A stretch of 63,536 bases of DNA, the filler included, from Reclinomonas americana ATCC 50394 (lineage: Eukaryota): NCBI GenBank assembly GCA_048213135.1. It is 8 parts of 5 records of this genome, joined end to end, with 100 filler letters (N's around TTAATTAATTAA, not from the genome) between each part and the next. Parts side by side here need not be neighbours in the genome. Positions count along the whole stretch, not along the records: positions 1 to 28,916 come from PS015676.1; positions 29,017 to 37,590 come from PS015677.1; positions 37,691 to 46,639 come from PS015678.1; 5 more parts are not named here. One strand, 5' to 3'. Under the pieces are notes generated by a model. It was not told the DNA's origin and searched no databases. It saw nothing but the letters and a program-made list of their open reading frames with translations. The translations under genes and the position numbers were made by a program. Of the stretch, positions 4,721-48,197 are shown one piece after another (the first letter of the stretch is position 1; each line of letters starts with the position of its first letter).

Positions 4721-4766
<46 letters not shown>

Positions 4767-10232: not shown

Positions 10233-11475
10233 GTCCACTTTGTCACCAACTTTGCCTCGTTCCTCGTGGAGGGCGCCGACACACCGGTCGACCAAGTGCT
10301 GTATGCTCGTTGCGTTTCGCCTCTCTCGCTGCACTCGCTCCTGCTCTGGCACTCATTTTTTCTCTCTCTCTCATTTCACCCCTTGTACCCTTTCCTTCTC
10401 TTCCCCTGTTCAGGCGACACGCTGGAGAACGCCGTGCTCCTGTGCGCACGCATGGGCGACCTGGACGCATTCGACATCAACATGGCGCAGCTGAAGACGT
10501 ACTACACCGACTTCCGGTGCGTCGCCCTCCCACTCCCGTGTCCTCACTATCGCCCGAGCTCACTCTTGTCATGGCAGTGGCAAGGCACGGCCGTCAGAAC
10601 GCGAGTACATGATCCGCGGACTCAACTTGCTCCGATTGCTGGCGCAGCACTCACGTGCGCGCTTCCACACCGAGTTGGAGTTGATTCCGATTGATCAGCG
10701 GTGAGTAGCACGGGAGGGAATGGCGGGAGGACAGGACAGGCACTCGGCGATTGTCCTCTTGCATGTGTGCTCCTTGTATCTCTGATCGCTCTTCTGCTGC
10801 CCTCTCTGGCGCCCCTCGCTTTTGCCTCATGCCCTCCTTTCCCCTTTCCTCCACACAGCGAATCCAACGTGTGGATCACGCACCCCGTCAAGCTGGAGCG
10901 CCACCTCATGGAGGGCGCCTACTCCAAGGTCTGGGCCTCGCGCATGGACGTACCACACCCGACGTACGCCCTCTTTGTGGAGGAGCTGATGAAGACTGTG
11001 CGGTGCGTTGGCGGTGTGCAGAAGAGATTGAGTGGGTTGATGTGTTCTGCTTGTAGGCAGCTTTGTCCAAGTGTTCGTTACTCTCCCTTATCCTTGCACT
11101 CTCTCTTGTCGAGTATGTGTGCGTTTATGCATGTCTGTCTGTTGCTCCCTTCTCATTTCTCCCCCCTTTCCCCCTCCCACCCCCCTTCCCCCTTCCCCCT
11201 TGCCCCTTGCCCCTTGCCCCTTGCCCCTCCACAGTAAGGAGTTCGCGGCCTGCGCTGAAAAGTCGTTTGAGCGCCTGCGCGTCACCGAGGCGTGCCGCAT
11301 GCTGCTCTTCGACTCGCTGCAGGAGCTCAAGGCCTTCACCGACAACCTGGGCTGGCGAGAGCAGAACGGCGAGTTCATCTTCCAGTCGGAGGAGACCAAG
11401 GAGCACGTGGTGCCGGCGCGCAACATTATCAGCAAGGCGCTGGCGTACGCCAAGGAGCTGGAGCGAATCATCTGA
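10233..11475 (+). CDS. PSMD8: 26S proteasome regulatory subunit Rpn12, 5' exon(s) missing. Exons 10233-10308, 10414-10516, 10578-10700, 10859-11002, 11235-11475
   Basis: ARDTLE, MAQLKTYYTD, GLNLLRLLAQ..FHTELELI, HPVKLERHLMEGAYSKV, C-terminal AYAKELERII-stop. Confidence 0.95.
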
Positions 11476-12019
11476 GAAAAGAAAGGAAGAGGGAGACTCG
11501 AATGGGAGAGCGTGACGGAGAGAGCAATACAGTTTGCGGTTGAAGGGAAATTGTTGAAGGGGACTGGGCGCAGAGGGAGCAGTTGGGGAGGGACACTTTT
11601 CACGCAGTAGTCAAGGTTTATGGTTGTGAAGCTGTTCCTCGCGTCACGCCCATGTTCGAGCGTGGAGGTGAGAGTGGATGCATTCACTTGGTTCCTTTAA
11701 CTTGAGTTGCGCCACGACAATTGTTCTCTGTCAGTGACGAAGAGAAGGACGGGAAGAGTCAGCGCATGGGTGCATCGTGTTTGGTTGATGAGGCACATTG
11801 TTCTCTGTCAGTGGGGAATCGATGCCGAATAGGAAGACGGGAAGAGTCAGCGGATGGTTGATTAGACGCAGATAATGTCTGCATCGATTTCGCTCTCTCA
11901 CGAGCCCAGCCAGTGCCTACAGTTTGAAGAGAGACTGAGCTGGTTGTACCTGTTACCACGCACCATAGCTTGTGCATTTGGTGAGTGAGCAGAGCTGCAA
12001 ATGATGGCAACAGATGCGG

Positions 12020-15000
12020 TGAACAATGAGGGCAGCACGAGCTTATATTCGCTGGCGTTTCACGGTGCGCGACGGTCTGGTGGCCTGTGAGGAGGGCGTG
12101 AGTGACGAATGGTGGGCAACCGTACGCAATTTCACACGAAGATACCGGGAAGGTATAATCGGCCTGCATTACGAGCAGAGAGTCAGCAGAACAAGCACAT
12201 CATCGGCGACTGTAAACAACAGGACGCACAATGTCCGGCGGCTCCTCAGACGCGAAATAGTCGAGCAGATAGGCACCGCGGACTGCCGGCACTTCACCAG
12301 TGGCGAGCGCTTCCATCTCCTGCAACTCGGCGGGCAGGCCGGCGTCCGGTACGACCGCGAAACACACATGGGCGGCACTGAGTGCGGTGAGGAGTCAAGG
12401 ACGACAACAGAGCAACAGAGAAGGGATACGCGGGACACTTCTGGCGAACAGAAAGGATATGCGTTGTGCTGCCGATGAGGGTGATTGGTTCGCCGCCGCC
12501 CTCCGCCACAATGTTGCACAGCAGTTCGTAGTAGGGGCTGGCGTCTTTGTGAATCGCCACTGCAAATTGGGGGAAGGGATTGAGGGAGAGGTGGGGGAGA
12601 AGGGTGGAGGTGAAGGGTGGAGGTAAAGGGAAAGGAGAAGAGATTGAGGGAGAAGGTTGAGGGAGAGTGGAGTGGAGGGAAAGTGTTGAGCTAGGAATAA
12701 GAAGACGACAAGTGACAATCGCCAGTAAGCGCAGAAACAGATTAACAAGCAGAGCAGACATATTAGGGCAGCTACTCAGAGTTCAGGTTGTCTCAGAGTC
12801 AGCCGGTTCTGCTCTGCGAATGCTCAATCTCACAATTTCCGCTGCACTCCAGATTTCTCCTCACCGTTTCCATCTGCGCCTCGACTCAGCAATATGTTGC
12901 GCTTTCAACCTCTCTCTCTCTCTCTCACTCTCTTTGCCTCTCCCTCTATCTCACTCATTCCATTTTACTCTCCATTATCAATCCCATTACTCCATTTCAT
13001 CTCTTTTAGCTTTCCTTTCTCGCTTCTCTCACTTTCCATCTGCCATTCCCCGTTTCCCTCCCTTCTGCTGCGCTTGTTCCTCTCGATTCAGCAATCGGCT
13101 GTGCTCTGCACGCGCCCACACTCTTCTTTCTTTCTGCCCGTTTTCCTTTACGTCTGCGTCTTGTTCCTCGCGATTCAGCTATCAGCTGCGCTCTGCAGCT
13201 CACCCACTCTCTTTCCACCCTCCTTCCATCTGCGTCTTGTTCCTCTCGATTAAGCAATCGTCTGCGCTCTGCACCTCATCCACTCTCGCATCCGTTTCCT
13301 TTCCTTCTACGCTTGTTCCTATTGATTCAGCTAACGGCTGCGCTCTGCACCTCGCCCACTCTCTTCTCTCTCTTGATACCCGTTTCCCTCCCTTCTGCAC
13401 TTGTTTCTCTCGATTCAGCAATTAGCTGCGCTCTGCTCCTTCCCACACTCTTCTCTCTCTTGACACCCGTTTCCCTTTCCTTTCCTGAATCAGCAATCAG
13501 TCGTGCACTCCACCTCGCCAACACTCTCCTCTCTCTTGCCACCCGTTTACTTTCCTTCTGCGTCTTGTTCCTCGCGATTCAGCTATCGGCTGCGCTCTGC
13601 ATCTCAACCACTCTCGCACCCGTCTCCTTTCCATCTGCATCTTGTCCTCTCGATTCAGCAATCAGCTGCGCTCTTCACCTCGCCCACTCTCTTCTCTCTC
13701 TCCATCCGTTTCCTTTCCTTTTCCTGAATCAACAATCAGTCGTGCTCTGCACCTCGCCCACTCTCTTCTCTCTCTTTCCACCCGTTTCCTTCTCTTCAGC
13801 GCTTGTTCCCTTTCCCCTTCTCCGCCCCTTTTTCCCCCTTTCCACTCACCTCGCCTCCCTGCCATCCCTCCATGCCCATGCCGCTGCTTGTACACACGCC
13901 AGCTGCGCGGCGACGCCAACCACAACTTGCGCTCCTTGTCCCAGTCCTCGGCAAAATACTCAAAGTCCTCCTCGGGCAGGAAGCGATCGGCCTTGGCGCA
14001 CTCGTCGCTGCACCCGAGTCAGCGACGGCACTTATGGTTGACAAAGGGAGAAGGGACGCAACAGGTACTCGGCACGCAGAATCCAGCAGCCGGCAGCCAT
14101 GGCGCACAGCACCTTTTCGGTGCGTGAAATGTTGTTGGTGACCAGGTGCGTGCAGCCGGGCACAAAGTGACTGCGTCGGGTGCGCAGCGTTCCTGTGAAT
14201 TAAGACAGTCAGACCAAACTCGTTTCGCAGGACACGCTTCGGTGGCAGGACGAGACCTCCCAGCCGCTCCACCGTGCTGCAAATTAAGAGTGAGTCTCAG
14301 AAGCACCACTATGCACCGAACTGTGTGAATGCGCAACTGCTTGAACTTGCGCGACCGCTGAATGTCGCCGGCAAACAGGAACACGCGCGCACCGGGGGCG
14401 TTGATGTGCGGCACTCGCAGCTCTGCATCCACCGCGGCGAGACTGCGCTTGCTGGCACGCGCGCGTGGCTGTCTGGTCGCGCGCTCCCGCCCACTCGCAC
14501 TGTCCTCGGTGCACTCGCTGGCGGCGGCGGAGGACAGAGGGGGGGTGGCCGTCAGGGGCGGGCGAGTGGGTGGTGTCAGCATGGAGATCGGTGGGGTGCC
14601 GGGGGCGTGGGAGCTCGACGAGATGGGTGAGGAGCGGATGGTGGACATGGTGATGTCGTCGCTGGTCATGTCTGTGGAGGGGAAGGAGGGGGTGCAAGGG
14701 GATATAAGGGAAAGGTTGAAGGGGAAGGTGAAAGGGGAAGGTGGAACGGGAAGGTGGAAGGGGACGGTGGAAGGCAGCGGAAAGGGAAAGGCGATAAAAG
14801 GGAAAGTGGATTTAGGGAGAAAGGAGATGTAGGGGAAAGGTAGGGAAGAGGCAGAGAAGGCAGCGGCAAGGTCAAGGACTTGTGATTGCAAATACAAGTC
14901 AAATGGCGAGATTGATCGACGGAAGATGAACAGGAATCGACGCAAGTTGAGATTTGCGGATTAATGATAATCGAGGAATGGAGATAAGGGGTTGAGTTAC

Positions 15001-17875
15001 AGAATGCAGAGGGCCAACAGTAAAGAGTTGGCGATCCCTTTCGGCCAAGAGAGATAGAGTAAGCAAGCAGTAAAGGGTTGACGATCAAGGGACAAAGGAG
15101 AGAAGAATTGATGATCGAGGGTTACAGGAAGGGAGGGTTGATGATCAAGGGTTAAAGGAGAGGAGAAATGATGATCGAGGGTTACAGCAAACGGAGGTTG
15201 ACGATCAAGGGTCACAGGAGAGAAGAAATGATGATCGAGGGTTACAGGAAAGGAAGGGTTGACGATCAAGGGTCACAGGGGAGAANNNNNNNNNNNNNNN
15301 NNNNNNNNNNNNNNNNNNNNNNNNNNNNNNNNNNNNNNNNNNNNNNNNNNNNNNNNNNNNNNNNNNNNNNNNNNNNNNNNNNNNNNNNNNNNNNNNNNNN
15401 NNNNNNNNNNNNNNNNNNNNNNNNNNNNNNNNNNNNNNNNNNNNNNNNNNNNNNNNNNNNNNNNNNNNNNNNNNNNNNNNNNNNNNNNNNNNNNNNNNNN
15501 NNNNNNNNNNNNNNNNNNNNNNNNNNNNNNNNNNNNNNNNNNNNNNNNNNNNNNNNNNNNNNNNNNNNNNNNNNNNNNNNNNNNNNNNNNNNNNNNNNNN
15601 NNNNNNNNNNNNNNNNNNNNNNNNNNNNNNNNNNNNNNNNNNNNNNNNNNNNNNNNNNNNNNNNNNNNNNNNNNNNNNNNNNNNNNNNNNNNNNNNNNNN
15701 NNNNNNNNNNNNNNNNNNNNNNNNNNNNNNNNNNNNNNNNNNNNNCGCCCTCGGCCCTAGAAGGAGAAGGAGAAGAGTGAGAGGGAAGGGAGAGAAGGGA
15801 TGGGAGAGGAGAAGGAGAAGGGAGATGAGAGGAGAAGGAGAAGGGAGAAGGGAGAGAAGAGGAAGAAGGTGAAGGGAGAAAAGAGAGAGAAGGGAGAAGG
15901 GAGGGAAGGTACTGTATGAATCTACAGTCAAGCAACTTGAGGCAGATGAGATGCGTGTTCTCACGCGTCATGTATCCCGTGTAGCGCGCTCCAATGTACT
16001 GAATGTACCGCTTGAGTTCCTCGCGAGGCACGCCCTGCGAGCATCCAGATGAGTTGCACGCGACAGCAGCGTGCAGCGCGTCGCAAGAAACAAACCTGGA
16101 ATCCAGTGACTGCAATCGTCTGCAACGTAGGGCAAGAGAGAAGAGAGTCAGCAGCAAGAAGCATGACTGCAGAGAAAGAGTGCGACGCGAGGACAGCTCG
16201 AGGCAAGAGAGCAACATTGCCACGCGAGAAACGAGCGGAACACTCAAGGCACGGGAGAACCAGCGCAGACAGACGTAGAACAGAGATCGTTCATGAGAAC
16301 GTGCGGAAACTTGAGGCACTTGACGAGCAACTACAAGCGATGCAAAGAAGACGAGACATGCAAGTGGCGAGACGGAGAGCACAGAATTACAATGCGCGAC
16401 AAAGTACGATTTCGCCCCCCAAGGAGAGTGAGAACTCAACTGCGGAGAGAAAAGAAAAAGAGTGCAATCAGTCACAGACAAAAAGAGACTGCGTTACGGC
16501 ACGACTGATCTCCACAGAGAACTGAAAACCTCTATGACATGCAAGTCCAAGGAGACAGAGTCACACGCAATCACTGATATACAATCGAAAAGAGAGTGCG
16601 ATACAGCACGACGCAAAAAGCATGATCTCCATAGAGAACTGAAAAGTTCTGTGTCCTGCACGGTAAACAGGAAGCCACAAAGAATTGTGGAGAAAAGCGT
16701 GCGCATCCAGTCAGAGAACCACAGACAAAAGAGACTGCGATACTGCATGCCGCGGAAAGCATGATTTCCAGAGAGAAGTGAGAACTTCTTGTGCCATGCA
16801 CGGTAAACAGGAAGCCACGAGAATTAAGGAGAAAAGTGTGCGCATCCAGTCAGAGAACCACAGACAAAAGAGACTGAGATACTGCATGCCGCGGAAAGCA
16901 TGATCTCCAGAGAGAAGTGAGAACTTCTTGTGCCGTGCATGCCACAGAGAATTCAAGGTGAAAAGTCACACGCAGTACAACGGAAAGAAATTGCAAATGA
17001 CATGACGCACAAAGCCTGCTCTCCCGAATCGAAGCGAGAATATCTCTGTGCTGCGCGGAAAACAGGAAACACGGAGAATCAAAAGAAAAAAGTCACACGA
17101 ACGCAAACAACAAGAAGCGGTGATACAATATGCCGAGAAAAACATGATCTCCAGAAACACAGTGAGACTATCTGCGCTGCGCGGTAAACAATAGACAAAG
17201 CGATTCGTGACAGATTGATTTCTCATCTTCTCTTCCCCATTTCTCCTCCCTTCCCCTTCACCCTTTCCCCCCACACCCCTTCCCCTTCTCTCCCTTCAAC
17301 ACACCATTCTCTCCATGCGGTAAACAAAAGACAAAGCGATTCGTGACAGCTTGATTTCTCTTCTTCCCTTCCCCTTCCCCCTTCACCCTTCCCCCCTTCT
17401 CCCCCCTTCCCCTGTAACACACCATCCTCTCCATCGCCGCAATGGTCTTACTGGGCGTAATCTGGAAATCAACATCCGACGTCGGCAGCAGCGACAGCGA
17501 ATTGTGGCAGCGCACCAGCCACCGCTCATTCACGCAGCGACAGCCGGCACAAATGGCCTCGGCGTAGCCGGCGTCGCTCGTCGCGCTGCCGATGAACAGA
17601 TTGTGCCGCCGCCGATCGAACACGAAATCCACCTCGGCGCCCATGCTGCGCAGCACGCTCACCACATACATGGCGTTCTCCGTCGCCCCCGGGATGGAGT
17701 CGTCGGCGGGAGGGGCTGCAGCGGTGGTGGTGGTGGTGGTGGAAGTGGCGGCGGGATCTGCCGCAGGTGCTGCTGCTGCGACAGGAGCAGGCTCGGCGGG
17801 AGCCTCGACGGCAGCGGGGGCGGGGGCAGGGGCGGGGGCGGGGGCGGGAAGCGGACCGTGTACGTCAATCACCGC
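12020..17875 (-). CDS. Multi-BRCT DNA-damage/replication scaffold (TOPBP1/PAXIP1-like), partial and interrupted by gaps
   Basis: BRCT motifs LRSMGAEV..CRCVNERWLVRC (17.5 kb) and IQYIGARYTGYMTRENTHLIC (16.0 kb), and a C-terminal tandem pair CTHLVTNNISRTEKVLCAMAAGCWILRAEYL|DECAKADRFLPEEDFEYF..NIVAEGGG. Ends are approximate. Confidence 0.8.
13030..13810. repeat. Intronic degenerate minisatellite (core CTCGATTCAGCAATCAGCTGCGCTCTGCACCTCGCCCACTCT)
   Basis: About 9 copies of the core separated by related pyrimidine-rich linkers. Confidence 0.85.
15070..15285. repeat. ~30 bp tandem repeat (TGATGATCRAGGGTTACAGG...) running into a gap
   Basis: Tandem units visible; shares the GATCAAGGGT core with the 5470 family. 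Confidence 0.8.
16480..17190. repeat. ~125 bp degenerate intronic tandem repeat
   Basis: Repeated AAAAGAGACTGCGATAC..AAAGCATGATCTCCAGAGA..CACGGTAAACAGGAAGCCAC blocks. Confidence 0.8.
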
Positions 17876-19383
17876 NNNNNNNNNNNNNNNNNNNNNNNNN
17901 NNNNNNNNNNNNNNNNNNNNNNNNNNNNNNNNNNNNNNNNNNNNNNNNNNNNNNNNNNNNNNNNNNNNNNNNNNNNNNNNNNNNNNNNNNNNNNNNNNNN
18001 NNNNNNNNNNNNNNNNNNNNNNNNNNNNNNNNNNNNNNNNNNNNNNNNNNNNNNNNNNNNNNNNNNNNNNNNNNNNNNNNNNNNNNNNNNNNNNNNNNNN
18101 NNNNNNNNNNNNNNNNNNNNNNNNNNNNNNNNNNNNNNNNNNNNNNNNNNNNNNNNNNNNNNNNNNNNNNNNNNNNNNNNNNNNNNNNNNNNNNNNNNNN
18201 NNNNNNNNNNNNNNNNNNNNNNNNNNNNNNNNNNNNNNNNNNNNNNNNNNNNNNNNNNNNNNNNNNNNNNNNNNNNNNNNNNNNNNNNNNNNNNNNNNNN
18301 NNNNNNNNNNNNNNNNNNNNNNNNNNNNNNNNNNNNNNNNNNNNNNNNNNNNNNNNNNNNNNNNNNNNNNNNNNNNNNNNNNNNNNNNNNNNNNNNNNNN
18401 NNNNNNNNNNNNNNNNNNNNNNNNNNNNNNNNNNNNNNNNNNNNNNNNNNNNNNNNNNNNNNNNNNNNNNNNNNNNNNNNNNNNNNNNNNNNNNNNNNNN
18501 NNNNNNNNNNNNNNNNNNNNNNNNNNNNNNNNNNNNNNNNNNNNNNNNNNNNNNNNNNNNNNNNNNNNNNNNNNNNNNNNNNNNNNNNNNNNNNNNNNNN
18601 NNNNNNNNNNNNNNNNNNNNNNNNNNNNNNNNNNNNNNNNNNNNNNNNNNNNNNNNNNNNNNNNNNNNNNNNNNNNNNNNNNNNNNNNNNNNNNNNNNNN
18701 NNNNNNNNNNNNNNNNNNNNNNNNNNNNNNNNNNNNNNNNNNNNNNNNNNNNNNNNNNNNNNNNNNNNNNNNNNNNNNNNNNNNNNNNNNNNNNNNNNNN
18801 NNNNNNNNNNNNNNNNNNNNNNNNNNNNNNNNNNNNNNNNNACTGTGAAAAGGCAAAGGGTGGGGGAAAGGGGAAGGGTGGGTGAGGGGGATGTGAGGGG
18901 AAGGGTGGATGAGGAGAAGGGGGATTAGGGTGGGAGGAGGGGGGGATGAGGATGAGAGGGGAAGAGGAGAGGGGGGAGAGCAGAGGGAGAGAAGAGCAGA
19001 GGAGAGGAGAGGGAAGCAGAGAAAGAGCAGAGGAGGGAACAGAGAAAGCAGAGCAGAAGAGAGAGAGAACAGCAGAACAGAGCCGGGGAGAGAAGAGCAG
19101 AGAAGAGCAAGGAGAAGAACAGAGGACAGCAGAGGAGAGCAGAGCAGGGGAGAGAAGAGCACAGCACAGCAGAGTGCAAAGAACAGAGCAGACGAGGGCA
19201 GAGAAGAAAAGAAATGATCAGGGTTGAGACAAATAGATGAACAGCCGAGAGAAGGACAGTGTTCTGCAAGGGGAGCGAAAGCAGGAGAGCGGGAGACAGA
19301 CAATCAAGTGAGAATGCAGAATGAGAAGAAGAAGACAGAAGGAATGAAGGAGGCAGTGTGCTGCGAGGAGAGAGCACAGAGAG

Positions 19384-19456
<73 letters not shown>

Positions 19457-20464
19457 GACGTAGTACGNNNNNNNNNNNNNNNNNNNNNNNNNNNNNNNNN
19501 NNNNNNNNNNNNNNNNNNNNNNNNNNNNNNNNNNNNNNNNNNNNNNNNNNNNNNNNNNNNNNNNNNNNNNNNNNNNNNNNNNNNNNNNNNNNNNNNNNNN
19601 NNNNNNNNNNNNNNNNNNNNNNNNNNNNNNNNNNNNNNNNNNNNNNNNNNNNNNNNNNNNNNNNNNNNNNNNNNNNNNNNNNNNNNNNNNNNNNNNNNNN
19701 NNNNNNNNNNNNNNNNNNNNNNNNNNNNNNNNNNNNNNNNNNNNNNNNNNNNNNNNNNNNNNNNNNNNNNNNNNNNNNNNNNNNNNNNNNNNNNNNNNNN
19801 NNNNNNNNNNNNNNNNNNNNNNNNNNNNNNNNNNNNNNNNNNNNNNNNNNNNNNNNNNNNNNNNNNNNNNNNNNNNNNNNNNNNNNNNNNNNNNNNNNNN
19901 NNNNNNNNNNNNNNNNNNNNNNNNNNNNNNNNNNNNNNNNNNNNNNNNNNNNNNNNNNNNNNNNNNNNNNNNNNNNNNNNNNNNNNNNNNNNNNNNNNNN
20001 NNNNNNNNNNNNNNNNNNNNNNNNNNNNNNNNNNNNNNNNNNNNNNNNNNNNNNNNNNNNNNNNNNNNNNNNNNNNNNNNNNNNNNNNNNNNNNNNNNNN
20101 NNNNNNNNNNNNNNNNNNNNNNNNNNNNNNNNNNNNNNNNNNNNNNNNNNNNNNNNNNNNNNNNNNNNNNNNNNNNNNNNNNNNNNNNNNNNNNNNNNNN
20201 NNNNNNNNNNNNNNNNNNNNNNNNNNNNNNNNNNNNNNNNNNNNNNNNNNNNNNNNNNNNNNNNNNNNNNNNNNNNNNNNNNNNNNNNNNNNNNNNNNNN
20301 NNNNNNNNNNNNNNNNNNNNNNNNNNNNNNNNNNNNNNNNNNNNNNNNNNNNNNNNNNNNNNNNNNNNNNNNNNNNNNNNNNNNNNNNNNNNNNNNNNNN
20401 NNNNNNNNNNNNNNNNNNNNNNNNNNNNNNNNNNNNNNNNNNNNNNNNNNNNCACACTCACTCT

Positions 20465-20536
<72 letters not shown>

Positions 20537-20671
20537 ACTCTCAGTCTCTCTTTTTCTGCTCATTCTCATCCGCCTTTCTTTGTTCTGCCTTCCCTTCTCT
20601 TTCTGCTCTCTCTTTCTCTCTTCCCGCCCTCTCCCTTGTGCACTCGCTCGCTCACTCACTCCCACTCACAG

Positions 20672-23600
20672 GATCGCCGCGACTCCCGCCTCCGCCGCGA
20701 GTACATCTACAAGAAGAATGTGGAGATTCAGGAGGCCAGCAAGGCCGAGAAGAAGAGCCTGATCAAGCGTGCCATTGCTGGTGAGTCGCGTGTGGAGAGA
20801 AGAGAAGAGAGCGCGCGTCACTTTTATTTTTTGAGTGTGTGTGTTTTGATGATGTACATGTGCACATGAATTTTTTTTTGGACTCACTCTTCTCATTTTT
20901 TTGTTTGTGGTGGCGGGGTGCAGAGAAGCAGCGTGTGGCGACGGAGATTGTGGATGATGTGCACACGTTGCGGCATGAGATGGAGATGGAGGATGAGAGG
21001 ACCGCGGGTGAGTCATTGGGGAATTGGGAGGAGAAGGATGGAGGGGGAAGGGGAAGTGGGTGCAGGAGGAGAGCTGGGCGTGTGTTGTATGTTGTGCAGC
21101 TGTGATGCGCGGAACAGCGTCAGGTGCACTATTTTTGCACTACGGTTGAGTTCTTTGAGATGTGACAACGAGATGGAGTGTGCGCTGTTCTGCAAACTGT
21201 GCAGCTGTGAGAGAAAGCCAATCAGACGCCCTATTTTGAGATCTTGTTGGTGCGAGGGATATAGAAGAAGGAAGTGTGGGAAAGAGTGAGTGAGAGCAGC
21301 TCTGCAAGCTTTGCAGGCGCGTTGAAGGAACCGCGTCAAACGCCCTCGTTTGAGTGCTTATGGGCGACGAGGGAGACGAGTGGTCAATCTCTCCTTCTCC
21401 CCTTCTATTCCCCCTTCTCTCCCCTTCTCTCCCTTCTCTCCCCTTCTCTCCCCTTCTCTCCCCCTTTTCTCCCCCNNNNNNNNNNNNNNNNNNNNNNNNN
21501 NNNNNNNNNNNNNNNNNNNNNNNNNNNNNNNNNNNNNNNNNNNNNNNNNNNNNNNNNNNNNNNNNNNNNNNNNNNNNNNNNNNNNNNNNNNNNNNNNNNN
21601 NNNNNNNNNNNNNNNNNNNNNNNNNNNNNNNNNNNNNNNNNNNNNNNNNNNNNNNNNNNNNNNNNNNNNNNNNNNNNNNNNNNNNNNNNNNNNNNNNNNN
21701 NNNNNNNNNNNNNNNNNNNNNNNNNNNNNNNNNNNNNNNNNNNNNNNNNNNNNNNNNNNNNNNNNNNNNNNNNNNNNNNNNNNNNNNNNNNNNNNNNNNN
21801 NNNNNNNNNNNNNNNNNNNNNNNNNNNNNNNNNNNNNNNNNNNNNNNNNNNNNNNNNNNNNNNNNNNNNNNNNNNNNNNNNNNNNNTCCCCCTCCGCAGC
21901 CGCCGCCTCCACTGTCGACGACGAGTACGCCCGCGCCGGCATGGAGGACCCGCGCATCCTCATCACTACCTCGCGCGACCCCAGCTCGCGCCTCATCCAG
22001 TTCGTCAAGGAGCTGTCGTTTGTGTTCCCCAACACGCAGCGCATGAACCGCGGCCAGCACGTCATCAAGAACATTGTCAAGTCGTGCCGCACGCACGAGT
22101 TTACCGATTTGATTTTGGTGCATGAGCATCGCGGGGAGCCAGGTGCGCACAAGGGAAAGGAAAAGGGGAAGGGATGCGATGATAGAGAGACGAAGAGCAT
22201 CCGCACATTCTCTGTGATTGTCTCTCAATCTCTCTTCGAGTCAGTCTCTCTCTCTCTCTCTTTCTTCGAGCCAGTCTCTCTTTCTTCGTGTCGGCTTCTC
22301 TCTCTCTCTCTCTATCTTCGCATCAGTGTGTGTTTCTTCAAGTCTCTCTTTCTTCCAAGTCTCTCTCTCTCTTTGCCTCTCTCTCTGTATGTCTCCCTCT
22401 TTGTCTCTCTCTCTCTCTCTCCCTCTCTCTCGCTGTCCACCCCTCTCTTTCACGCTCTCCCTCTCCCTCCCTCTGACATTACCTCCCTTTCCCCCTTTCC
22501 CCCTTTCTCCCTTTCCCTCCACAGACGGCCTCATCATCTCCCACCTCCCCTACGGACCCACCGCCTACTTTGCCATTGTCAACGCCGTCTCGCGCCACGA
22601 CATCAAGGCCGACGGCACGATTCCCACCGCCTATCCGCACCTGGTGATGGAGAATTTCACGACCAAGCTCGGCAAGCGCGTGGCGAATATTCTGAAGTTC
22701 CTGTTCCCGGTGCCGAGGCCCGACACGCGGCGCATCATCACGTTTGCGAACTCGAATGATTATATTTCGTTCAGGTGTGTGGGACGGGAAAGAGAGGGGG
22801 GAGGGGAAGGGATTTGAGGGGAAGGGGAAGGGGGAAGGGAGGGGAAGGGGAAGGGGGAAGGGCGAAGGGAGGAGAAGGGGGAAGAGTGGGAAATGAAGGA
22901 TATGGAAAGGGGGAGGGAGAGAAGAGAGGCGAGGAAAGAATGAACGCGATATGAACGAAGGTTGACATTAGTGAGCGAGAGAAAGAAGCACGAACAGAGA
23001 ATTGGAGATACGAGCGAGACCAGAAACTGATGAGAGAGAAGGCCCAGGTGAAGAGGAAATAAGAGACTTGTGTTTTCAAGGATGATTGTCACACTGTGGA
23101 CTTGAAGTGAGGCGCGTGCTTCTTTGTTGTCGGTCTCCTTCTCTCGTTCTCTTTCTCTCTTTCTTTCTATCTCTCTTTCTCTCTTGTTGTCTTTCTCTCT
23201 CTGTCTTTCTCTCATTTTTCTTCTTCCTTCTCATGTGCCTCTTTTCTCTCTTCTTCGTTCTCTATGTACCTCTTTCACCTGCTGAGTTGTCACTTGTGAA
23301 TCAGAAGAATGCTCGAGGTTTGCTATCTCGTTCTCGACAAACTGGAGTGAGGTGTGATGCCTCTTCGTGACAGCTTTTGTCACTTGATGCGCCACGTGCT
23401 TCTCGCTTTCTTTCTCATTCATTGTTTCTCTCTCTTTTGTTTACTCTCAATTCTCTCAAGCATTCTCTCAAACGTGTTCCATGTCTCTTTCACTCAGCAT
23501 AGACATTGAGTTGTCGCACTTGTGAATCAGAAGGATGCATGCAGTGGAAAAGGACGCATTCAATAGATGAGAATGAGACGCTGTCATTCTGGTTGCAGTG

Positions 23601-23973
23601 AGAGGCCGAAGAGCTGAAGGGAGTGTCGCACTGTATTGAGAGAATGTATCGGGTGTTGGAGAATTGCACGAGAAGATCGGCACTCGACACCACACTTTGC
23701 TGTTGAGATGGACGCAGAAAGGAGGGAAGAGCACTGTGTCAGTGCCATAGCGAGGACTCTTTATATTGCTCTTCCCTCACTTCACCCTTCGCCCACAATA
23801 GGCATCACATTTACGAGGTGCAAGACGGCCAGACGGTGCTGAAGGAGGTGGGTCCGCGCTTCGAACTGCGCTTGTTCCAGATCCGCCTGGGCACGGTGGA
23901 CATGACGGAGGCGGAGAACGAGTGGGTGTTGAGACCGTACATGAATTCGGCGGCGAAGAAGCAGCAGATTTGA
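20672..23973 (+). CDS. IMP4: U3 snoRNP protein IMP4 (Brix domain), first exon in gap. Exons 20672-20780, 20924-21007, 21900-22142, 22525-22774, 23802-23973
   Basis: [84 protein letters not shown]. Confidence 0.96.
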
Positions 23974-24562
23974 GAAAGGAGGGAAATCGGTTGGATTGAT
24001 GGTCGGAATAAAAATAGTCGAGGCTGAAGTGTGGCGTGGAGAGGAGGAGGAGAAGAGCAGAGGAGGATGCATCAACCGAGTGACTTGGCGGGTATCCGCG
24101 ATGCGCTGGTCAAGTTGTGTGAGGGGAGAAGGGAAAGAGAAGAGGAAGGGTGTTGAGGGAGAAAGAGAGAGTGGCATGAAGGGAAGGGTGTTGTGCAAGT
24201 GGGGATGGAAGGAGAGAGCACTGGCGAGTCGGGAGAGAGAGGGGGGCGAGTGGGAGAGAGAACTGTCTCTCTTTCTCTCGTTCACTCTCTTCGCGTTGCG
24301 CATCGATGCAGAAGGCAGAACGCCCTCTCTTGCACTTTGTACGCTCGTCTCCTCTCTGTTTTCTTTAGAGGGCGGGAGTGCAAGAGAGTGAAAGAGAGAA
24401 CTCTTCTCTCAGTGCAGGATTCATGCAGAAGGCAGACTGGTTGGAATGCAGCCCTCTCTCTCGCACAGCACACGCCCTCGCTGAGTGTGCTCGTCCCCCT
24501 TTGTCTGAGAGACAGAGAGCAAGAAAGAGAGAGCAGATGACAGCACAGCTGAGAGAGATGAC

Positions 24563-24598
<36 letters not shown>

Positions 24599-24737
24599 AC
24601 GAGAGAGAGAAAGAGAGAGAAGAGAGGAGAGCGAGTNNNNNNNNNNNNNNNNNNNNNNNNNNNNNNNNNNNNNNNNNNNNNNNNNNNNNNNNNNNNNNNN
24701 NNNNNNNNNNNNNNNNNNNNNNNNNNNNNNNNTACTA

Positions 24738-24793
<56 letters not shown>

Positions 24794-25246
24794 ACCCAAT
24801 TCTAGAACATCAACAACTCACGCCTCACAATACGTACATATACATACACACGAGGAAGGGAACTGCACACTAAATACAGTACGATTCTAACACTCCTGAT
24901 CGCCCTCCTCTCTCTCTCTCTCCTGTACAAGAATTACTTCATGCACAGACAACATCAGCCACTCACCCCATACACGCACACATACACCCGACTCAGTAAT
25001 ACACGCAGCACCGTGAAGTCAACCACATCCAACTGCTTGCTAATCCTATACACTCGCAGAGAGATCACCGGCCTCTGTTGCAAACGCACACGTACGCACA
25101 TGATACGCAGCGAATTCAACTTATTCAACTGCTCCGCCACACACACACTCACGAAAAGAGAGAGAACATGCGAACCCTGTCCTCCACCATTCCAGCTCAT
25201 CTGCGTCCCTTCTCTCCGCCCTTCCCCACTCCCCCCACTACGCAAC

Positions 25247-38639: not shown

Positions 38640-41600
38640 TCAGATCTTCACGCCCGACGTGCAGTCCCCACTCGTGGCACACGCTGTCGCCATCGACGTG
38701 GCCACCACGCCGCTCTTCGGCACACACTGCTTTGTCGACGCTGTGAATGTCCACGAGCCGCAGGCGGTCAACTGCGAGCACCACAGTGAGCATGCCTGCG
38801 GCCCGGTAGTTGTCTTGATGGCCCACGTGAGATCGCCACCAGGTCGATCTGCATGCAAGCAACCAACACATCAGTCACAGATCTCTTCATGTCTCATCAT
38901 CTCTCTTCTCAGCGAGGACTCACCCGTGCTCGTCTGGAAACCGCTGCTGTCATACGCTGCCGCACTCGTCTTGCGTCCCGACACCAAACAGAAGTGCGAG
39001 CCACACACATTGCTGGTCTCTGCATTGGCTGCTGTGGCTGGCACAGTGCTCTGCGTGCAACAAACGAAGCGGTGAGTTTGACAGTCTCACACAATCCCTC
39101 TCTCATCTCGGATCACGTGCCTTCAGTGTGCACACACTTGCTCCAGATGTGTTCGATGCAGCGGCAGCATCCAAAAAGGTCCACGATCGACAAAGAGGGT
39201 ACTGGTCGCACAGTTCACAGCACCCGACTTCGCTGAGAACAGAAGGCATCGAACCCAGGATCGTGCCGCCGGGTCGATCCACAGCCTCGAACTGGCACAC
39301 TTCCAACGCCGCTGTTCGAGGCAATTACAAGTGAGAAGGCGACAATTTAGAACATCTGTGATACTAAACAACGCAACGAGCGACCACTCCATTCTGCACC
39401 GTTGAACAACCCGTACTCATTGCTGCACAAGCACCCGTTATAATGAGCACCATCCATATTTTCGCATTTCTGTAAACGCGCTGCGTTGCAGGAAAGAGAG
39501 GGCGACAACAATCACACAAATCTGCGGCTTCGGTGCTCCCTTCCCCTTCCCTTCAAGGATTTATGCTGTCTTTTCTCTGAATGTACTGCCATGCAAAGTA
39601 AGACAGGACGACGGTAGTCAAATGAATCTGCTACTTCCGTTCGCTCTCTCCCTCTGTTCCCCTCCCTTCCCCATCACGCACCATAGACAATCATGAACTG
39701 CTTGGTGTACGACAGCGCCCCGTCGCTCACTTGCACAAACACTTGCAGTCGCCGACTCAGCGGCGGAGCCACCGAGATTGTCAGCTGATTGCCACCAACC
39801 AGACTGAAAAGAGCCGCGTGCACACCGCCCACAATGCTGAATGTCGGCGTCTGTCCCGTGTTGAGATCCACCATGCTCAGTGTGCCCACCGTGAACGGCA
39901 CCGCAGCACTCGAGTACGTCTGCGCACCAGACAGCAGAATGTCGCTCGGACCAACACTCCCTGCACATTCACATAGACAAAGGTTCAGCTCATTTTCTCA
40001 GCCTCCTCCCTCTCCTCTCCCTCTTCCCACTTCCTCTCCCTCTCTCTCCACCTCTCTCTCCCTCCTCCCCTCACACCTTACCCCCCCCCCCCCCACTCCC
40101 TCTCCTTCTCCTTCTCCCCTCTCCCTTTCCCCCGTTCCTCACCAATGGCGAAAGTCGACACCGCCAGATATGTCTTGGTTGACGCCCAGCGTGTGCACAG
40201 CTCGTACGTGCCTGTAGCTGCACCCGCCGCTCCGATCGTCAGTGTGATGCTGGTCGCACTGCCGAACGCGCTGCTGATGCTGGTGCTTGCCACGGCCGTC
40301 GGCGGTGTCGCGGCGCCACAAAGGGGAGTGGCCACCACATAAGCCGACGCATCGGCCGAGTTGTTCACAAGCGCGGTTCCCGTCAGTGTTATCAGCTGGC
40401 CAGCCAGTGCCGACACAAAGGTGGCCGACAGCGATGTCACAGTGGGTACTGCAGTGAGGCAAAGGCAAATCAGCATCATCGTTCATCACAACAACACACA
40501 ATCAGAGTAGCACGCAACCGGCAATGTTGAGGGTCTGATCGAACGACATGGCAGGATTACCGTTGTCGGTCGTACGTACAATCACCACCAGCGACGTCGT
40601 CACACCCGCAGTCGCAAACTGCAGCTGGTTGCCAGACGCAACCGTCACCAGTGCACTGCTCGCACCACCCACCACCGAATACGTGAACGACTGCTGCGAG
40701 TTCACATCACTCGTGCTCATCGTGCCGATCGCCTGCCCCATCGCACTGGGCGTAATGTACGAACTCGCACTCAGTGTCACCGCCGTCGGCGCATTATTCA
40801 CTGCGTGAAGACAAGTTAAGCATCCACACCAAGGAACAAACACCGCTCTCAATCAGCCATCTACTCACCCGACGTCACACTGAATGACTTGTCGAAGAAC
40901 GTCGGAGGTGTGCCATTGTCGAACGAGCGGATCGTGACAGCCAGTGGACTGCCCGACTGGCCCGACGACGTGATCTGCAGCTGCGCGCCAGCGCTTACCG
41001 AAAACGCACTGCCATTCGCTCCTCCACTGACCGCGTACGTAAACGACTGTCCCACGTTATCGTCGCTGGTGCTCATCGTGCACACGGCCGTGTTGGCCGT
41101 CGACGGTGCAACATAGGTGGTGGCAGAGCACGCAATGTCGGTCGGCGTCGAGTTGGAGGTCGTGAAGGACATGGTGGAGCCAGTGAGAGTGCTGGGCACG
41201 GTGGATGTGGACAGGGCACGGAAGTAGTACGTCCAGTTGGCGGCGAGTGGTGTCAGTGATGCGGTGAGGGCGGTCCTGGAGGCGACGCCGGAGGTGGCAG
41301 GGGTGGCCGAGACGGTGGTGGAGCCGATGGTGAGTCGGCGGACGGTGTTGTTGGTAAAGTCTGCAAGCAAGAAAGAAACGACAGTGATCATCACGTCACC
41401 GCTCGCAATGTGCTACCAATCTCGTACCCGGAATGTACAGTGTGGACGTCGCCGCATCGTAAGCGATGTAGTGCTGCATTCAATGTTACGCAATTAAGAT
41501 GCAAGCAGGCTGCTGACTAGATTGTGAAAGCGCGTACCGGCTGGATGAACCGAGCAACAGTGAGCGGGCTCCCATCAGCCGATCCAGTGGACCCCGCAGC

Positions 41601-41948
41601 ACCCGCGATGGTCGTGACAGCACCCGTGCTAATAACGATTCGGCGGATCGTTTGGTTGCCCGCCTTTGCGGATCGCAAGTGATGAGTCAACGATTAGATG
41701 AGCAGCGATCTCAGCGCAATTCGCAACTTCAGAGACGTAAAAGACTCCTCGTCCTCGATCCAACTGGATGCCAACAGGTCCGTTGAAATAAGCAGCAGTG
41801 CCCGTGGCATCAGTCGATCCCGCAGTGCCGGTGAGCGAGCCAGCCAGAGTCGATACCGTCATCGCCAGCATGTCGATCGCGCGAACATTATTCCCATTAC
41901 GGTCAGCTACTTGCCACCACCGTGTAAGTACTATTCCTTCTGCTGAAA

Positions 41949-41984
<36 letters not shown>

Positions 41985-43390
41985 CACACACCGACGTACA
42001 GCCGATTGGCCGTCGAATCCAATGCCACGCCGTTCGGTCCACCAAACTGTGCCGTGGCACAAGCGCCATCAACCGTGCCCTGCGTCCCAATTGTACCGCA
42101 GTAGGTGGTGACCTCGCCGCCATAAGTGACCTGCGTTGCGGGAAGATCAGGAGATGAGTTCACTCACTTGCACATCAGGTGCAGATGATGCCTGCACGCA
42201 CCTTCCTGACAGCTTTGTTCTGCCAGTCACCAACATATGCCGCTTTGTTGGCCGCATCAACTACAATGCCGTGTGGAGACTTAAACCTGGCGCTCGACCC
42301 GGTGCCGTTCGCAGTGCCAAGAGTTCCGTTGCCAGCCAGAGTCGACACAGAGCCGGAAGGAGTGCTCACACGAATTNNNNNNNNNNNNNNNNNNNNNNNN
42401 NNNNNNNNNNNNNNNNNNNNNNNNNNNNNNNNNNNNNNNNNNNNNNNNNNNNNNNNNNNNNNNNNNNNNNNNNNNNNNNNNNNNNNNNNNNNNNNNNNNN
42501 NNNNNNNNNNNNNNNNNNNNNNNNNNNNNNNNNNNNNNNNNNNNNNNNNNNNNNNNNNNNNNNNNNNNNNNNNNNNNNNNNNNNNNNNNNNNNNNNNNNN
42601 NNNNNNNNNNNNNNNNNNNNNNNNNNNNNNNNNNNNNNNNNNNNNNNNNNNNNNNNNNNNNNNNNNNNNNNNNNNNNNNNNNNNNNNNNNNNNNNNNNNN
42701 NNNNNNNNNNNNNNNNNNNNNNNNNNNNNNNNNNNNNNNNNNNNNNNNNNNNNNNNNNNNNNNNNNNNNNNNNNNNNNNNNNNNNNNNNNNNNNNNNNNN
42801 NNNNNNNNNNNNNNNNNNNNNNNNNNNNNNNNNNNNNNNNNNNNNNNNNNNNNNNNNNNNNNNNNNNNNNNNNNNNNNNNNNNNNNNNNNNNNNNNNNNN
42901 NNNNNNNNNNNNNNNNNNNNNNNNNNNNNNNNNNNNNNNNNNNNNNNNNNNNNNNNNNNNNNNNNNNNNNNNNNNNNNNNNNNNNNNNNNNNNNNNNNNN
43001 NNNNNNNNNNNNNNNNNNNNNNNNNNNNNNNNNNNNNNNNNNNNNNNNNNNNNNNNNNNNNNNNNNNNNNNNNNNNNNNNNNNNNNNNNNNNNNNNNNNN
43101 NNNNNNNNNNNNNNNNNNNNNNNNNNNNNNNNNNNNNNNNNNNNNNNNNNNNNNNNNNNNNNNNNNNNNNNNNNNNNNNNNNNNNNNNNNNNNNNNNNNN
43201 NNNNNNNNNNNNNNNNNNNNNNNNNNNNNNNNNNNNNNNNNNNNNNNNNNNNNNNNNNNNNNNNNNNNNNNNNNNNNNNNNNNNNNNNNNNNNNNNACGT
43301 ACGTACGTACGTACGTACGTACGTACGTACGTACGTACGTACGTACGTACGTACGTACGTACGTACGTACGTACGTACGTACGTACGTAC

Positions 43391-43467
<77 letters not shown>

Positions 43468-46400
43468 GATAACACAACGCAACGTCAGTAATGTACAAAT
43501 ACCCGGTGTTGAGGTCGATCGACACATTGGTGGGCGCGTTAAACCGTGCAGCAGTGCCGATTCCGTCAGTCAGACTCGACATTCCACCAGTTCCCAGAAA
43601 CGTCGACGTCACACCGCCAGTCGTCACTCGCCGGATCGTGTGATCGAACATAGAGCACACGTATGCAGTGCCCGCAGCATCAAACGTGACACTCTGTAAC
43701 AGACAGTCGTGAGATGTACGTACACATACTGTGGCAGGCGGTCTTCGGGCAGAGGACGAACCGAAGGGTTGACGAAGCGGGCAGCGTTTCCCGTACCATC
43801 CGTCGAGCCAGACATGCCCGCCGTGCCCAACCACGTCGACACCGTTGGAGTGACACCGAATGCAGCCGCAGTGGGCGCCCATTCAAACGAGTTGGTCATT
43901 GTCGAGGCCGCCACAGAGTTGCCCACCACGGCATTCAACGTCGCCGACGTCGTGGTCACACTGCTGGCCGCCAGGGTGGCCAGTGATTGGGTGGCTGTGA
44001 CGCACCAAAGGAGAAAGACGAACATTAACATTGTGAGTGACCAGCAGAAAGGGACAGCGGGAGGGAGAGGAGGAGAAGAGGAGAGGGAGAAAGAGGAGGG
44101 GAAGAAAGAGGAGGAGAAGAAGAAGATGAAGAACAAGAAGATGAAGAAAACGAAAGTAACTCGATGACGGTGACAAATTAACGAAGACGAGACAATAGGG
44201 AGAGAGAGAGAGAGAGAGAGAAATCCAGAACACACAAGACAATGCAGCTTCCGATCGCCTCACCCGTGGTGATGGTGAATGCCTTGTCGAAGAACAACGG
44301 CGGCGATCCATTGTCCGTCGACCGGACCGTCACCGCCAGCGAGCTGCCCGCCTGCCCCGCCGCCACAATCACCAACGACTGTCCGCTGATCGAAAACACT
44401 GCGCTGTTGGTGCCTCCAACGATCGAGTACGTGAACGACTGGCCCACATTCGTGTCCGTTGTCTGCAGCGCGCACACGACTTGATTCGCCACCGATGGCG
44501 ACACATACGTTGTCGACGAGCAACTGATGTTGGCCGGTGCCACATTGGCCACAGTGGAAAAGGACACAGTGGCGCCATTGATGGTGCTGGGTGTGGAAGT
44601 GACGCCGACGGCGCGATAGTAGTACGTCCAGTTGCTCGCCAATCCAGTCAGTGAGGCGGTGATGGAGGTGGCCAGAGAGCCAGTGGCGGTGGCGGGCGTG
44701 GCTGACGCAGACTGTGACGCCAGCGAGAGTCGACGGATGGTGAAATAAGTGTAATCTGATACCAGCACAGATGCCGTCGACGCATCGAAGGCGACAAAGT
44801 GGGGCTGAGCAAAGCGCGCCACGGTCAGAGCATCGCCATTGGCAGCACCAGCCGTGCCCGCCGCGCCAGCAATCGTCGTCACTGACGAGTCCGATACTCG
44901 GAATTGCCGCAAGGTGTTGTTGATAGCCTGCAGATAGCACGCATTCAGGTAATGAAGCAGCGAACGCGCAGAGGGTGTGTACTGAGATACTCAACATCGA
45001 CAATGTAGATGACGTTGTTTCCAGCGTCGTATGCCATTCCGATCGGCGTGCTGAAGCGAGCAGCCGTTCCTGTTGCATGAACATCGATGAACACCCCCCC
45101 GCAATAATCGATCACGCAGAGGTGCACGTGGTGGACATACCGGTGCCATCCGTGGATCCAGATGCGCCGCTCGTCGAACCCGCCACTGTCGTCACCGTCA
45201 TTGCCACAGTGTCGATGGCGCGGATGGAGTTGTTCACGCGGTCGGCTGCACGTACACACAAACAATGCACAGATGAGCACGGGAGGAAGGGCATCATCTC
45301 TCCGCACAGTGGCTCACCAACATACAGCGTGCTTCCGACGAGAAGCAGGCCGTTGGGACCACCGAATCGCGCAGTTCCCGCACATGTGCCATCGGCAGTG
45401 CCACCCACGACAGCCGAGCCACAAAAGGTCGTCACCACGCCGGCATAGGTCACTCGCCGAATGATTTTGTTGTTAATATCGCCCACGTACACGACTTGAT
45501 TCGTGGCATCCACCGCCACATCCGCAGGCTGATTGAAGGAGGCCGCTGCGCCCGTGGCATTGGCAATCCCCGCCGCTCCATTGCCCGCCAGCGTGGTGAC
45601 CACGGCCGCTGAGGTGACCGCACGCACAGCGTGGTTGGTCAACTGCGTGAAAGAGACGACACACAAGAGTCATCAGCATGCATCACACGTGATCATGCAC
45701 GCATGCCAGCAGCACACTCACATCGGCGACATAGATGGTTCCCGTGGTTTGGTCGACGGCGAGACCATAAACACTGCGAGTGAGTGAGCGAAGGGAGGAA
45801 GGGCGAGAGAGAGAGAGGGAGAGAGAACGCACTTTTTGAACTGTGCAGCCACTCCGGTGCCATCCACGAGGCCGCACGTGCTTCCCGCAAAGGTGGTCAC
45901 TGTGGCCGCAGGCGTAACCCGTCGAATGCGACAGTTGCTGCCATTATCATCAACACGCAAGAAAAAAGTGAGAAAATGCAGGTACGAGGAGGACCGACCG
46001 CGAGCGACGGGCAACGAAACAAGTAATCGCTCACGAACAGGTTGCCTGCGGCGTCAAAGGCCAGTCCCTGTGGAGAGAGCACACACTCACAGTGTCAGTA
46101 CAGCACACACACAAGGAGTACGAGCGCGATCGTTCACACCGCTGTATTTGTGAACAGAGCACTCGCGCCTACGCCGTCCGTCGTTCCCGACAAGCCTGAC
46201 GTGCCCACAAACATAGAGACAGTGGCAGTGGAAACGCCGAGGGTGGAAGAGTAGGGCGACCACTCGAATGAGTTGGTGGTGCCTCCAGCAACACTATTGG
46301 GATTGACCCACGCATTGAGTGTGGCAGATGTGCCAGTGATATTGCTGGCGACGGCCGTGGTCACTGTCTGGGCGTCTGTGGCGCGCACGGAGAGAAGAGA

Positions 46401-46600
46401 CGAGTGTGTGTGCGTGTGCAAGTGAGAGTCGAACGAGATATGCAGCGGAGTTAGGTTAAAGGCATAACACACACACAACTTGCAATGGTGGCTGAAGAGA
46501 GGATGAGTAAGTGGAGGAAGAGCGTGATGCTGAAGAGCGCGCGCAGCACGTTGAAGCGCGTGAGCGACCGAGGAGAGTCCCGTCGCTCACTGTCGACCAT
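38640..46600 (-). CDS. Giant secreted FN3/NHL/cadherin-like/IPT/PAN protein, copy B (near complete, more than 20 exons, one gap)
   Basis: ATG at 46600 with a hydrophobic leader, exon structure parallel to copies A and C, stop at 38640; no transmembrane helix seen at the C-terminus. Confidence 0.9.
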
Positions 46601-46856: not shown

Positions 46857-47074
46857 TTGCCTGCGCCCCACCCTGCACATGCACCCAGGCTGTTTGCAAC
46901 GGAAGACCTCTCTCACTCCTCCCTCTCCCTCTCTCCCTCTCTCCCCCTCTTTAACACACAAGATACATTTACATTCTGTTTCTCATTGTCCTCACGCGTG
47001 CATGTTCCCGACACTGCTGCCAGGACACCCACCGAGGAGGAGACCGCGCGCGCGCGCCACACTGCAACTCACAT

Positions 47075-47756: not shown

Positions 47757-47854
<98 letters not shown>

Positions 47855-48158
47855 AGAGAGAGAGAGAGAGACGAGACGACGACGACGACGANNNNNNNNN
47901 NNNNNNNNNNNNNNNNNNNNNNNNNNNNNNNNNNNTTAATTAATTAANNNNNNNNNNNNNNNNNNNNNNNNNNNNNNNNNNNNNNNNNNNNAGAGAGAGA
48001 GAGAGTGAAGAGAGAGTGAGAGAGAAGAGAGAGAGAGAGTGAAGAGTGAGTGAGAGAGAAGAGAGAGAGAGTGAGAAGGGAGGGAGAGAAGAAGACTGAA
48101 AGACGCAAATGACGAAGGGCAAGAGAAAGCGAAAGAAAGATTGAGCAAACAGACAGGC

Positions 48159-48197
<39 letters not shown>

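Follow-up and report, generated by a model that had tools for sequence, protein, structure and literature searches.

A discrete class of GTTGCG-type donors and a complementary U1 snRNA paralog suggest two intron-start codes in Reclinomonas americana

Why do so many introns of Reclinomonas americana ATCC 50394 appear to begin with a common donor motif enlarged by one T? In the window, that is, the whole stretch of 63,536 nucleotides (nt) joined from eight parts of five records of assembly GCA_048213135.1, the first-pass annotation had listed 13 donors (5′ splice sites) reading GTTGCGT or a close relative. It held that a shifted or bulged register of pairing with the U1 small nuclear RNA (snRNA) had become a major mode of donor recognition in this lineage, through variant snRNAs or altered protein dependence. 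All 13 motifs are indeed there, in place and in orientation (listed below). Following them beyond the window, we found that such donors make up a distinct class and that, next to the canonical U1, there is a variant U1 gene whose 5′ arm is complementary to that class. We consider it likely that two major-type donor classes and two U1 snRNAs constitute two intron-start codes operating side by side.

The source is a fragmented 108-Mb assembly of an intron-rich genome with many dynein heavy chains. Introns were predicted over 678 kb (about 20 contigs) with a self-trained gene model that gives all donors a flat score and is in this sense donor-blind, yielding 2003 introns, of which 1155 were retained (non-redundant introns of 50–130 nt that end in YAG, contain no N, and lie between exons of 45 nt or more) and 848 discarded; the model at times merges neighboring genes. 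With the class defined as GTT-N-(not G)-G and ordinary donors by G at +5, the 1155 donors divide into 246 class members (∼21%), 688 ordinary donors, 215 that are neither, and six GC donors. GTTGCGT is the most frequent donor heptamer, observed 149 times compared with 3.2 expected from independent positional frequencies, an excess that excludes chance and bears out the earlier view of a major class. The heptamer accounts for 9.65% of 1989 predicted donors; among other GT sites its share is 0.10% in exons, 0.45% inside introns, and 0.09% on the antisense strand.

Three features lie outside the class definition. First, +5 is C in 224 of the 246 class donors and A in eight; the counterpart position of ordinary donors holds C in 287 and A in 174 of 688, in agreement with the earlier remark that C mostly replaces A at +4. 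Second, the exon ends in A in 37 of 53 class donors in which +7 is not T, compared with 61 of 193 in which it is (P = 1e-6). Third, the base composition at −1 resembles that at −2 of ordinary donors (χ2 9.8) and not that at −1 (χ2 476); the last exon base is G in 22 of 246 class donors (77 expected from codon composition) versus 589 of 688 ordinary ones. Among the single-base neighbors of GTTGCGT, +3 and +6 are near-fixed (changed in one and two cases, respectively) and +5 varies (A in seven, T in seven), much as +4 varies in ordinary donors.

Class introns match ordinary introns in length, branch motif, branch distance, and 3′ end. Like U2-type introns they have GT–AG ends and a loose CTNAY branch point ∼20 nt from the 3′ end; unlike them they lack the G+5 that pairs with C42 of U6 and carry G at +6 instead, as the class rule requires. 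The U12-type RTATCCTT donor and TCCTTRAC branch point are not features of class introns. Phases 0, 1, and 2 occur in 76, 86, and 84 class introns versus 336, 227, and 125 ordinary introns (P = 4e-8), with phase 0 avoided. Both donor classes are present in 68 of 73 predicted genes with at least five introns, and a test for clustering of class introns along genes was negative (P = 0.095). Judged from sequence, the class is a discrete second donor class of major-type (U2-type) introns, comprising roughly one intron in five.

Two origins for these introns were tried and rejected. Spread as introners finds 27 similar pairs among the 1155 introns; of the 25 listed, most are short, and the one pair within the class is a pair of paralogs. 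If the class had arisen by one-base sliding from G|GTGCGT, the next exon should begin with G more often, which it does not (77 of 246 vs. 251 of 688), and the phases do not fit a −1 shift.

Junctions outside the window were also fixed by homology, using a spliced aligner that allowed any GT or GC donor and scored no motif beyond these bases. With a profile built from 30 of 120 dynein homologs, 197 introns were placed in nine dynein regions (the allelic copy on contig C97 excluded). A strict filter left 77 introns, among them seven GTTGCG-type, none after G; 65 with G+5, 58 of them after G; and five others. When the filter was relaxed, the set held 20 class introns, of which 19 follow a base other than G, and 95 ordinary introns, of which 86 follow G. 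Of 27 dynein class introns, 19 lost 5 bits or more when the donor was disabled, and the invariant dynein motif SP|VGEKFR aligned gap-free across a class junction; the best dynein match was 68% identical. In PRP8, the match to solved structures stops at MDL right before a GTTGCGT, and the database chain goes on with C (MDL|C).

What might recognize these donors? An Rfam search recovered a canonical U1 (U1a; arm AUACUUACCUG, contig C343) and a variant U1 (U1b; arm AUACGUAACUU) in two identical copies on contigs C429 and C479, which are probably alleles; a variant U1, one of the explanations first offered, thus exists alongside the canonical one. Each arm has 11 nt before helix H, so the U1b arm differs from that of U1a by three substitutions (U5G, C8A, and G11U) and not by an insertion. 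By computed complementarity, U1b pairs C9–G+1, A8–U+2, A7–U+3, U6·G+4 (a wobble), G5–C+5, C4–G+6, A3–U+7, and U10–A−1, a frame that lies one base downstream, into the intron, of the normal register. The mean duplex energy of class donors is −8.4 kcal/mol with U1b versus −1.4 with U1a, and that of ordinary donors −3.9 versus −6.5. Of the three features outside the class definition, only C+5 points to U1b, fitting its G5 and not U5 of U1a; the other two would also fit a shifted U1a or the U5 snRNA. The class seems better viewed as one whose entire recognition frame is displaced by +1 than as one in which normal U1 tolerates a bulge, because both arms are 11 nt long and class −1 resembles ordinary −2. 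Of the register originally proposed, the shift survives, and the bulge with normal U1 gives way to this displacement.

U1b looks functional by several features of its gene. It covers the whole Rfam U1 model (1–166; E = 4e-14) and retains the 11-nt single-stranded arm, helix H, the loop I and loop II protein sites, the Sm site, and stem-loop 4; its stems are preserved through double-sided changes in three of five stem-loop-1 pairs and two of four helix-H pairs. The two copies are identical at 154 of 154 positions, and their 500 nt of upstream sequence differ by 12 substitutions plus insertions and deletions. The motif CCCAYAA stands at −66 of U1b and at −62 to −72 of U2a, U4, U5, U6, U6atac, and U11, and a downstream motif of U1b is common to U1a, U2a, and U5; both motifs were derived post hoc from these snRNA genes. 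No further U1 type was found among 22 stem-loop-4 pattern matches (13 of the 19 non-U1 matches were read, and 13 scanned loci covered nine of the 19) or among six loop-pattern matches. There is a weak hint that U1b also cross-reads A|GTGCGT, as A precedes 20 of 287 ordinary donors with C at +4 versus 11 of 401 others (P = 0.014).

Two observations concern the surroundings of these genes. The CCCAYAA element is common to RNA polymerase II and RNA polymerase III snRNA genes and recalls the plant upstream element of snRNA genes. Between 620 and 1220 nt upstream of U1b (L039:3093-3690, contig C479) lie five GTTACG, the perfect U1b complement, and three GTTGCG on one strand, kept in both copies; the background is 0.06 per kb, and no other sampled 700-nt stretch holds more than two. 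The cluster could be a U1b feedback element or a set of transcription-factor sites.

In the mechanism that we propose, U1a would read G|GTNNGT in the normal register, and U1b would read class donors one base downstream. Seven U1b pairs lie on the intron side, so an exon-final G would be unnecessary and U1b would serve introns that follow A, C, or T; the branch point and 3′ end are common to class and ordinary introns. That U1b is expressed and bound at class donors seems to us probable. In the normal register, the major U6 forms no pair with class +5 or +6 (0% and 0%). After hand-over, the single major U6 would most likely pair C42 with G+6 and A41 with U+7, with the one extra base accommodated between +2 and +4. 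We lean, with moderate confidence, toward this +1 register of U6, which is favored by the tolerance pattern of near-fixed +3 and +6 and a +5 that accepts A or T. The catalytic step would call either for such a register, of which we found no description, or for a borrowed U6atac of the CC type (discussed below); the probability that these two leave falls to an unassembled U6 or to protein-only handling.

Several points weigh against this mechanism. Every junction rests on homology or on a gene model, and U1b is known from its gene sequence. The donor-blind model reproduces 68 of 77 homology introns exactly, but it was seeded on those same dynein genes, and errors are among the 215 modeled donors outside both classes. 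For the other eight of the 27 dynein class introns, the loss on disabling the donor was below 5 bits; the usual fallback, an in-frame GC 3 nt downstream that adds one residue, is excluded only by gap and GC penalties that we set ourselves. Because the class rule itself fixes T+3 and G+6, the energy gap between U1b and U1a is partly built in. A−1 could equally pair with U5 loop 1 or a shifted U1a, and −2 fails to separate U1a from U1b. GTTACGT, the perfect U1b complement, is rare among donors (four of 193), and +8A and +9T show no enrichment in the class. Both U1 genes score under the Rfam cut-off of 69.5 bits (64.0 for U1b and 63.7 for U1a), and the U1b covariation, drawn from two sequences, is not significant versus shuffles (54 of 500). 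In the account given in PMC11162779, the cut normally falls five bases from the C42 pair, and −1 is the only alternative U6 register; PMC3561869 describes an analogous human variant, U1A7, that failed to rescue complementary sites.

The other spliceosomal components narrow the choice. Major U6 is present as three identical copies at two loci, all with the canonical ACAGAGA, and no major U6 variant was found; the variant U6 that had been suggested is unsupported. METTL16, SNRNP27, U1-70K, and one LUC7 gene are all present; loss of METTL16, SNRNP27, or LUC7, the route by which a changed dependence might have arisen, is thus not the cause of the donor class. U4 and U5 are each of one type, and the U5 loop is canonical. 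U2 comes in two types (contig C14:162841 and contigs C409/C371; 114 and 85 bits) that have an identical branch-site box and differ in the 5′ stem and helix-I bulge; the second, U2b, is without the exact shared promoter motif. On this sequence evidence a minor spliceosome is present as well, besides the class: U11 is canonical (51 bits; arm AAAAAGG, not complementary to GTTGCGT), U6atac is of the CC type (contigs C392 and C1225, 37.8 and 34.9 bits, cut-off 33; box CACCGAGAGA), and about four candidate true U12-type introns with RTATCCTTT donors occur in 678 kb. No second U6atac was found among 22 core-pattern matches. U12, U4atac, and U1C (short-domain search) were not found by a search type too weak to show absence; these blanks are uninformative because the same type of search missed U5, later found by pattern. 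The U6atac shows a double-sided change in its 5′/3′ pairing relative to the Rfam consensus.

The strongest alternative, which we hold to be possible though unlikely, is a hybrid in which U1b and U2, perhaps U2b, recognize the class and a U4atac/U6atac tri-small nuclear ribonucleoprotein catalyzes its removal. Pairing of the U6atac box (A16, G15, and C14) with C+5 and G+6 would keep the normal register and make a shifted U6 unnecessary; by this count U6atac pairs with class +5 in 91% and +6 in 100%, compared with none for major U6, and yet its C13 is unable to pair with class T+7, and +5 is less fixed in the class than +6. At +6 and +7 the box is a poor match to the true U12 donors of this genome (ATATCCTTT), and the U6atac helix-I strand is able to pair with U2, of which there are two types; a specific U2b/U6atac helix, however, was not found (shuffle P = 0.56), U11 is canonical, and class branch points are of the major type. 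Avoidance of phase 0 is shared with minor introns (as described in PMC10639083), but the phase pattern is explicable by exon-base preference alone. Pairing beyond +7 gave no signal in class donors with either major U6 or U6atac. Co-adaptation of the U6atac box to the class was considered and rejected: PMC2396436 describes the CC variant from many lineages with ordinary minor introns, and a variant so widespread is no evidence of co-evolution with the class, for which the box may be a pre-adaptation. That a third, mixed spliceosome of U1b, U2b, and a borrowed CC-type U6atac removes about a fifth of all introns is accordingly a tentative idea to which we assign a low probability.

A more doubtful alternative is that canonical U1a reads the class in a shifted or bulged register, with U1b a minor helper or in another role. 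Such registers are established in human (PMC4856993); the failure of U1A7 and the data on A−1 fit, as do the seven GTTGAGT donors, about 20-fold above background. U1a would have to bridge two internal mismatches, though, as its mean energy reflects, and human-type shifted sites predict A+5, seen here in eight donors where 224 have C. The match of the U1b arm changes to the class would also be left unexplained. Finally, we regard it as very improbable that the real cleavage site is another one (GC at +4 or GT at +6) or that U1b stems from a second organism, for although junctions are known from homology or model and the assembly holds probable bacterial contigs (C1 by composition) and allele pairs, homology is gap-free at SP|VGEKFR in dynein, at MDL|C in PRP8, and in Rpn12, genes beside both U1 loci hold GTTGCG as well as ordinary donors, 68 of 73 genes mix the classes, and U1b has its promoter motif, loops, and stem-loop 4 in common with other snRNAs.

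The two-U1 reading extends known themes, a shifted register and a co-evolved U1, and the feature is unusual in its scale and in having an snRNA of its own. Human shifted-register sites (cited in PMC4856993, PMC11162779, and PMC3561869) resemble the class in that the consensus lies one base into the intron and U1 pairs downstream; as described there, they use canonical U1, and all non-canonical registers together make up ∼1.5% of sites (PMC11162779), compared with ∼21% here, with C and not A at +5 and a matching U1 paralog. Compensatory U1 arms are described from Entamoeba (ACAAAC) and Mastigamoeba (ACGUAC), and a standard plus a modified U1 from Physarum (bioRxiv 10.1101/2022.06.08.495308). 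In the first two the arm is altered to fit a non-standard donor, in Mastigamoeba by the same U5G, but by that description the normal register is kept and each Entamoeba species has one U1 candidate, whereas the present genome combines a canonical U1, a +1-register U1, and two discrete donor classes that occur in the same genes. The diplonemid S. specki also combines a canonical and an alternative U1, two genes with different 5′ ends; in the description of PMC12621601, both pair comparably with one donor logo, and no separate donor class is matched to the variant. The minor spliceosome, expanded in Physarum (according to bioRxiv 10.1101/2020.10.12.336362), offers the likeness of a second snRNA set with a second intron class, C+5, no exon-side G, and under-represented phase 0, but the class differs from U12-type introns in donor, branch point, and 3′ end, and canonical U11 and true AT–AC introns exist separately here. 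A literature search, with most subscription journals outside its reach, turned up no description of a GTTGCG donor class or of a U1 paralog with a +1 register.

Few features of nuclear splicing are as fixed as the U1 arm and the pairing of G+5 with U6. If true, the two-U1 reading would be an example from nature of a variant snRNA dedicated to one class of introns; in human, that idea did not hold up when tested. Two questions become testable through this reading: whether U6 can routinely place the cut six bases from C42, and what the CC-variant U6atac pairs with. That U6atac variant is called widespread and left unexplained in PMC2396436 (2008), and if the mixed spliceosome were true, the box would gain a matching substrate. 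A practical consequence is that annotation of this genome with standard donor models will contain errors.

Within the window, the donor-blind model picks nine of the 13 listed sites exactly and misses 35253, 39377, 41727, and 43483; three of these four yield junctions that match paralogs, and the acceptor of 43483 falls in an assembly gap. The sites are not independent, with paralogous pairs at 31370/39377, 34064/40518, 35253/41727, and 36934/44995. Homology fixes the cut in Rpn12 and at one PI3K donor. When 11 open-frame junctions are compared with a profile of 54 sequences, the Rpn12 junction at 10309 (LYAR|DTLE) scores best (262.0 vs. 255.4 bits), a word-based search for Rpn12 homologs having found none; the PI3K donor at 28042 is chosen by both homologs in spliced alignment, and disabling it costs 7.0 bits. 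The BRCT site at 14062 is weaker: the Pfam BRCT match reaches the last exon residue, and an in-frame GTACCT 6 nt upstream is an alternative. The features are as follows.

10309..10413 (+): Rpn12/PSMD8 intron, c/GTTGCGT, phase 1, 105 nt (54-sequence profile; donor-blind model).
12387-12460 (−): candidate U12-type AT–AC intron, donor ATATCCTTT, branch point TCCTTGAC, AC end, 74 nt (alternatively 79 nt).
14008..14062 (−): BRCT-gene intron, t/GTTGCGT at 14062, phase 2, 55 nt (donor-blind model; Pfam BRCT).
14277..14337 (−): extra class member absent from the first list, a/GTTGCGC at 14337 (model only).
25240..25246 (−): probable PI3K donor, t/GTTGCGT at 25246 (motif and model; homology does not fix the next exon).
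26954..28042 (−): PI3K intron, t/GTTGCGT at 28042, phase 2, crossing an assembly gap (two homologs; donor knock-out).
31306..31370 (−): NHL-repeat family intron, t/GTTGCGT, paralog of 39377 (model; paralog comparison).
33993..34064 (−): NHL-repeat family intron, g/GTTGCGT, paralog of 40518 (model; paralog comparison).
35194..35253 (−): NHL-repeat intron, t/GTTGCGT (YVVD/GNTIR), paralog of 41727 (paralog reading frame; missed by the model).
36867..36934 (−): NHL-repeat intron, t/GTTGTGT, paralog of 44995 (model; paralog comparison).
39312..39377 (−): NHL-repeat family intron, c/GTTGCGT (junction as in paralog 31370; missed by the model).
40449..40518 (−): NHL-repeat family intron, g/GTTGCGT (model; paralog comparison).
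41664..41727 (−): NHL-repeat intron, a/GTTGCGA, AAG acceptor (paralog frame YVSE/AGNQTIRR; missed by the model).
43477..43483 (−): donor c/GTTGCGT after YITD, acceptor in an assembly gap (motif; repeat position shared with the other five).
44928..44995 (−): NHL-repeat intron, t/GTTGAGT (model; paralog comparison).
45643..45721 (−): ordinary GTGAGT donor at the repeat position and phase of the GTTG-type donors (YVAD/LTNHAVR).
45938..46020 (−): extra class member, t/GTTTCGT at 46020 (model; paralog comparison).

The ordinary donor of 45643..45721 has the repeat position and phase of its class counterparts, so both classes occupy homologous positions without sliding. The family that holds these introns (28900-46600, minus strand), first labeled adhesin, is a tandem array of apparently secreted proteins that combine NHL-like repeats with cadherin-like segments, labels given by inspection. 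Inspection of the modeled proteins also suggests resemblances to Nop56 at 2532-8600 (+), to an Imp4/Brix protein at 20849-23973 (+), and to eIF5 at 47000-48500 (−). Elsewhere in the assembly, PRP8 (contig C729) carries an in-frame insertion ending in ...VTHN before CPKELGG, which resembles an intein with a homing-endonuclease domain. Contigs C1 and C2 seem bacterial, C1 differing in composition. Many loci also seem to be present as allele pairs (e.g., C429/C479, C392/C1225, and C27/C30), and with both alleles assembled, copy numbers are probably doubled.

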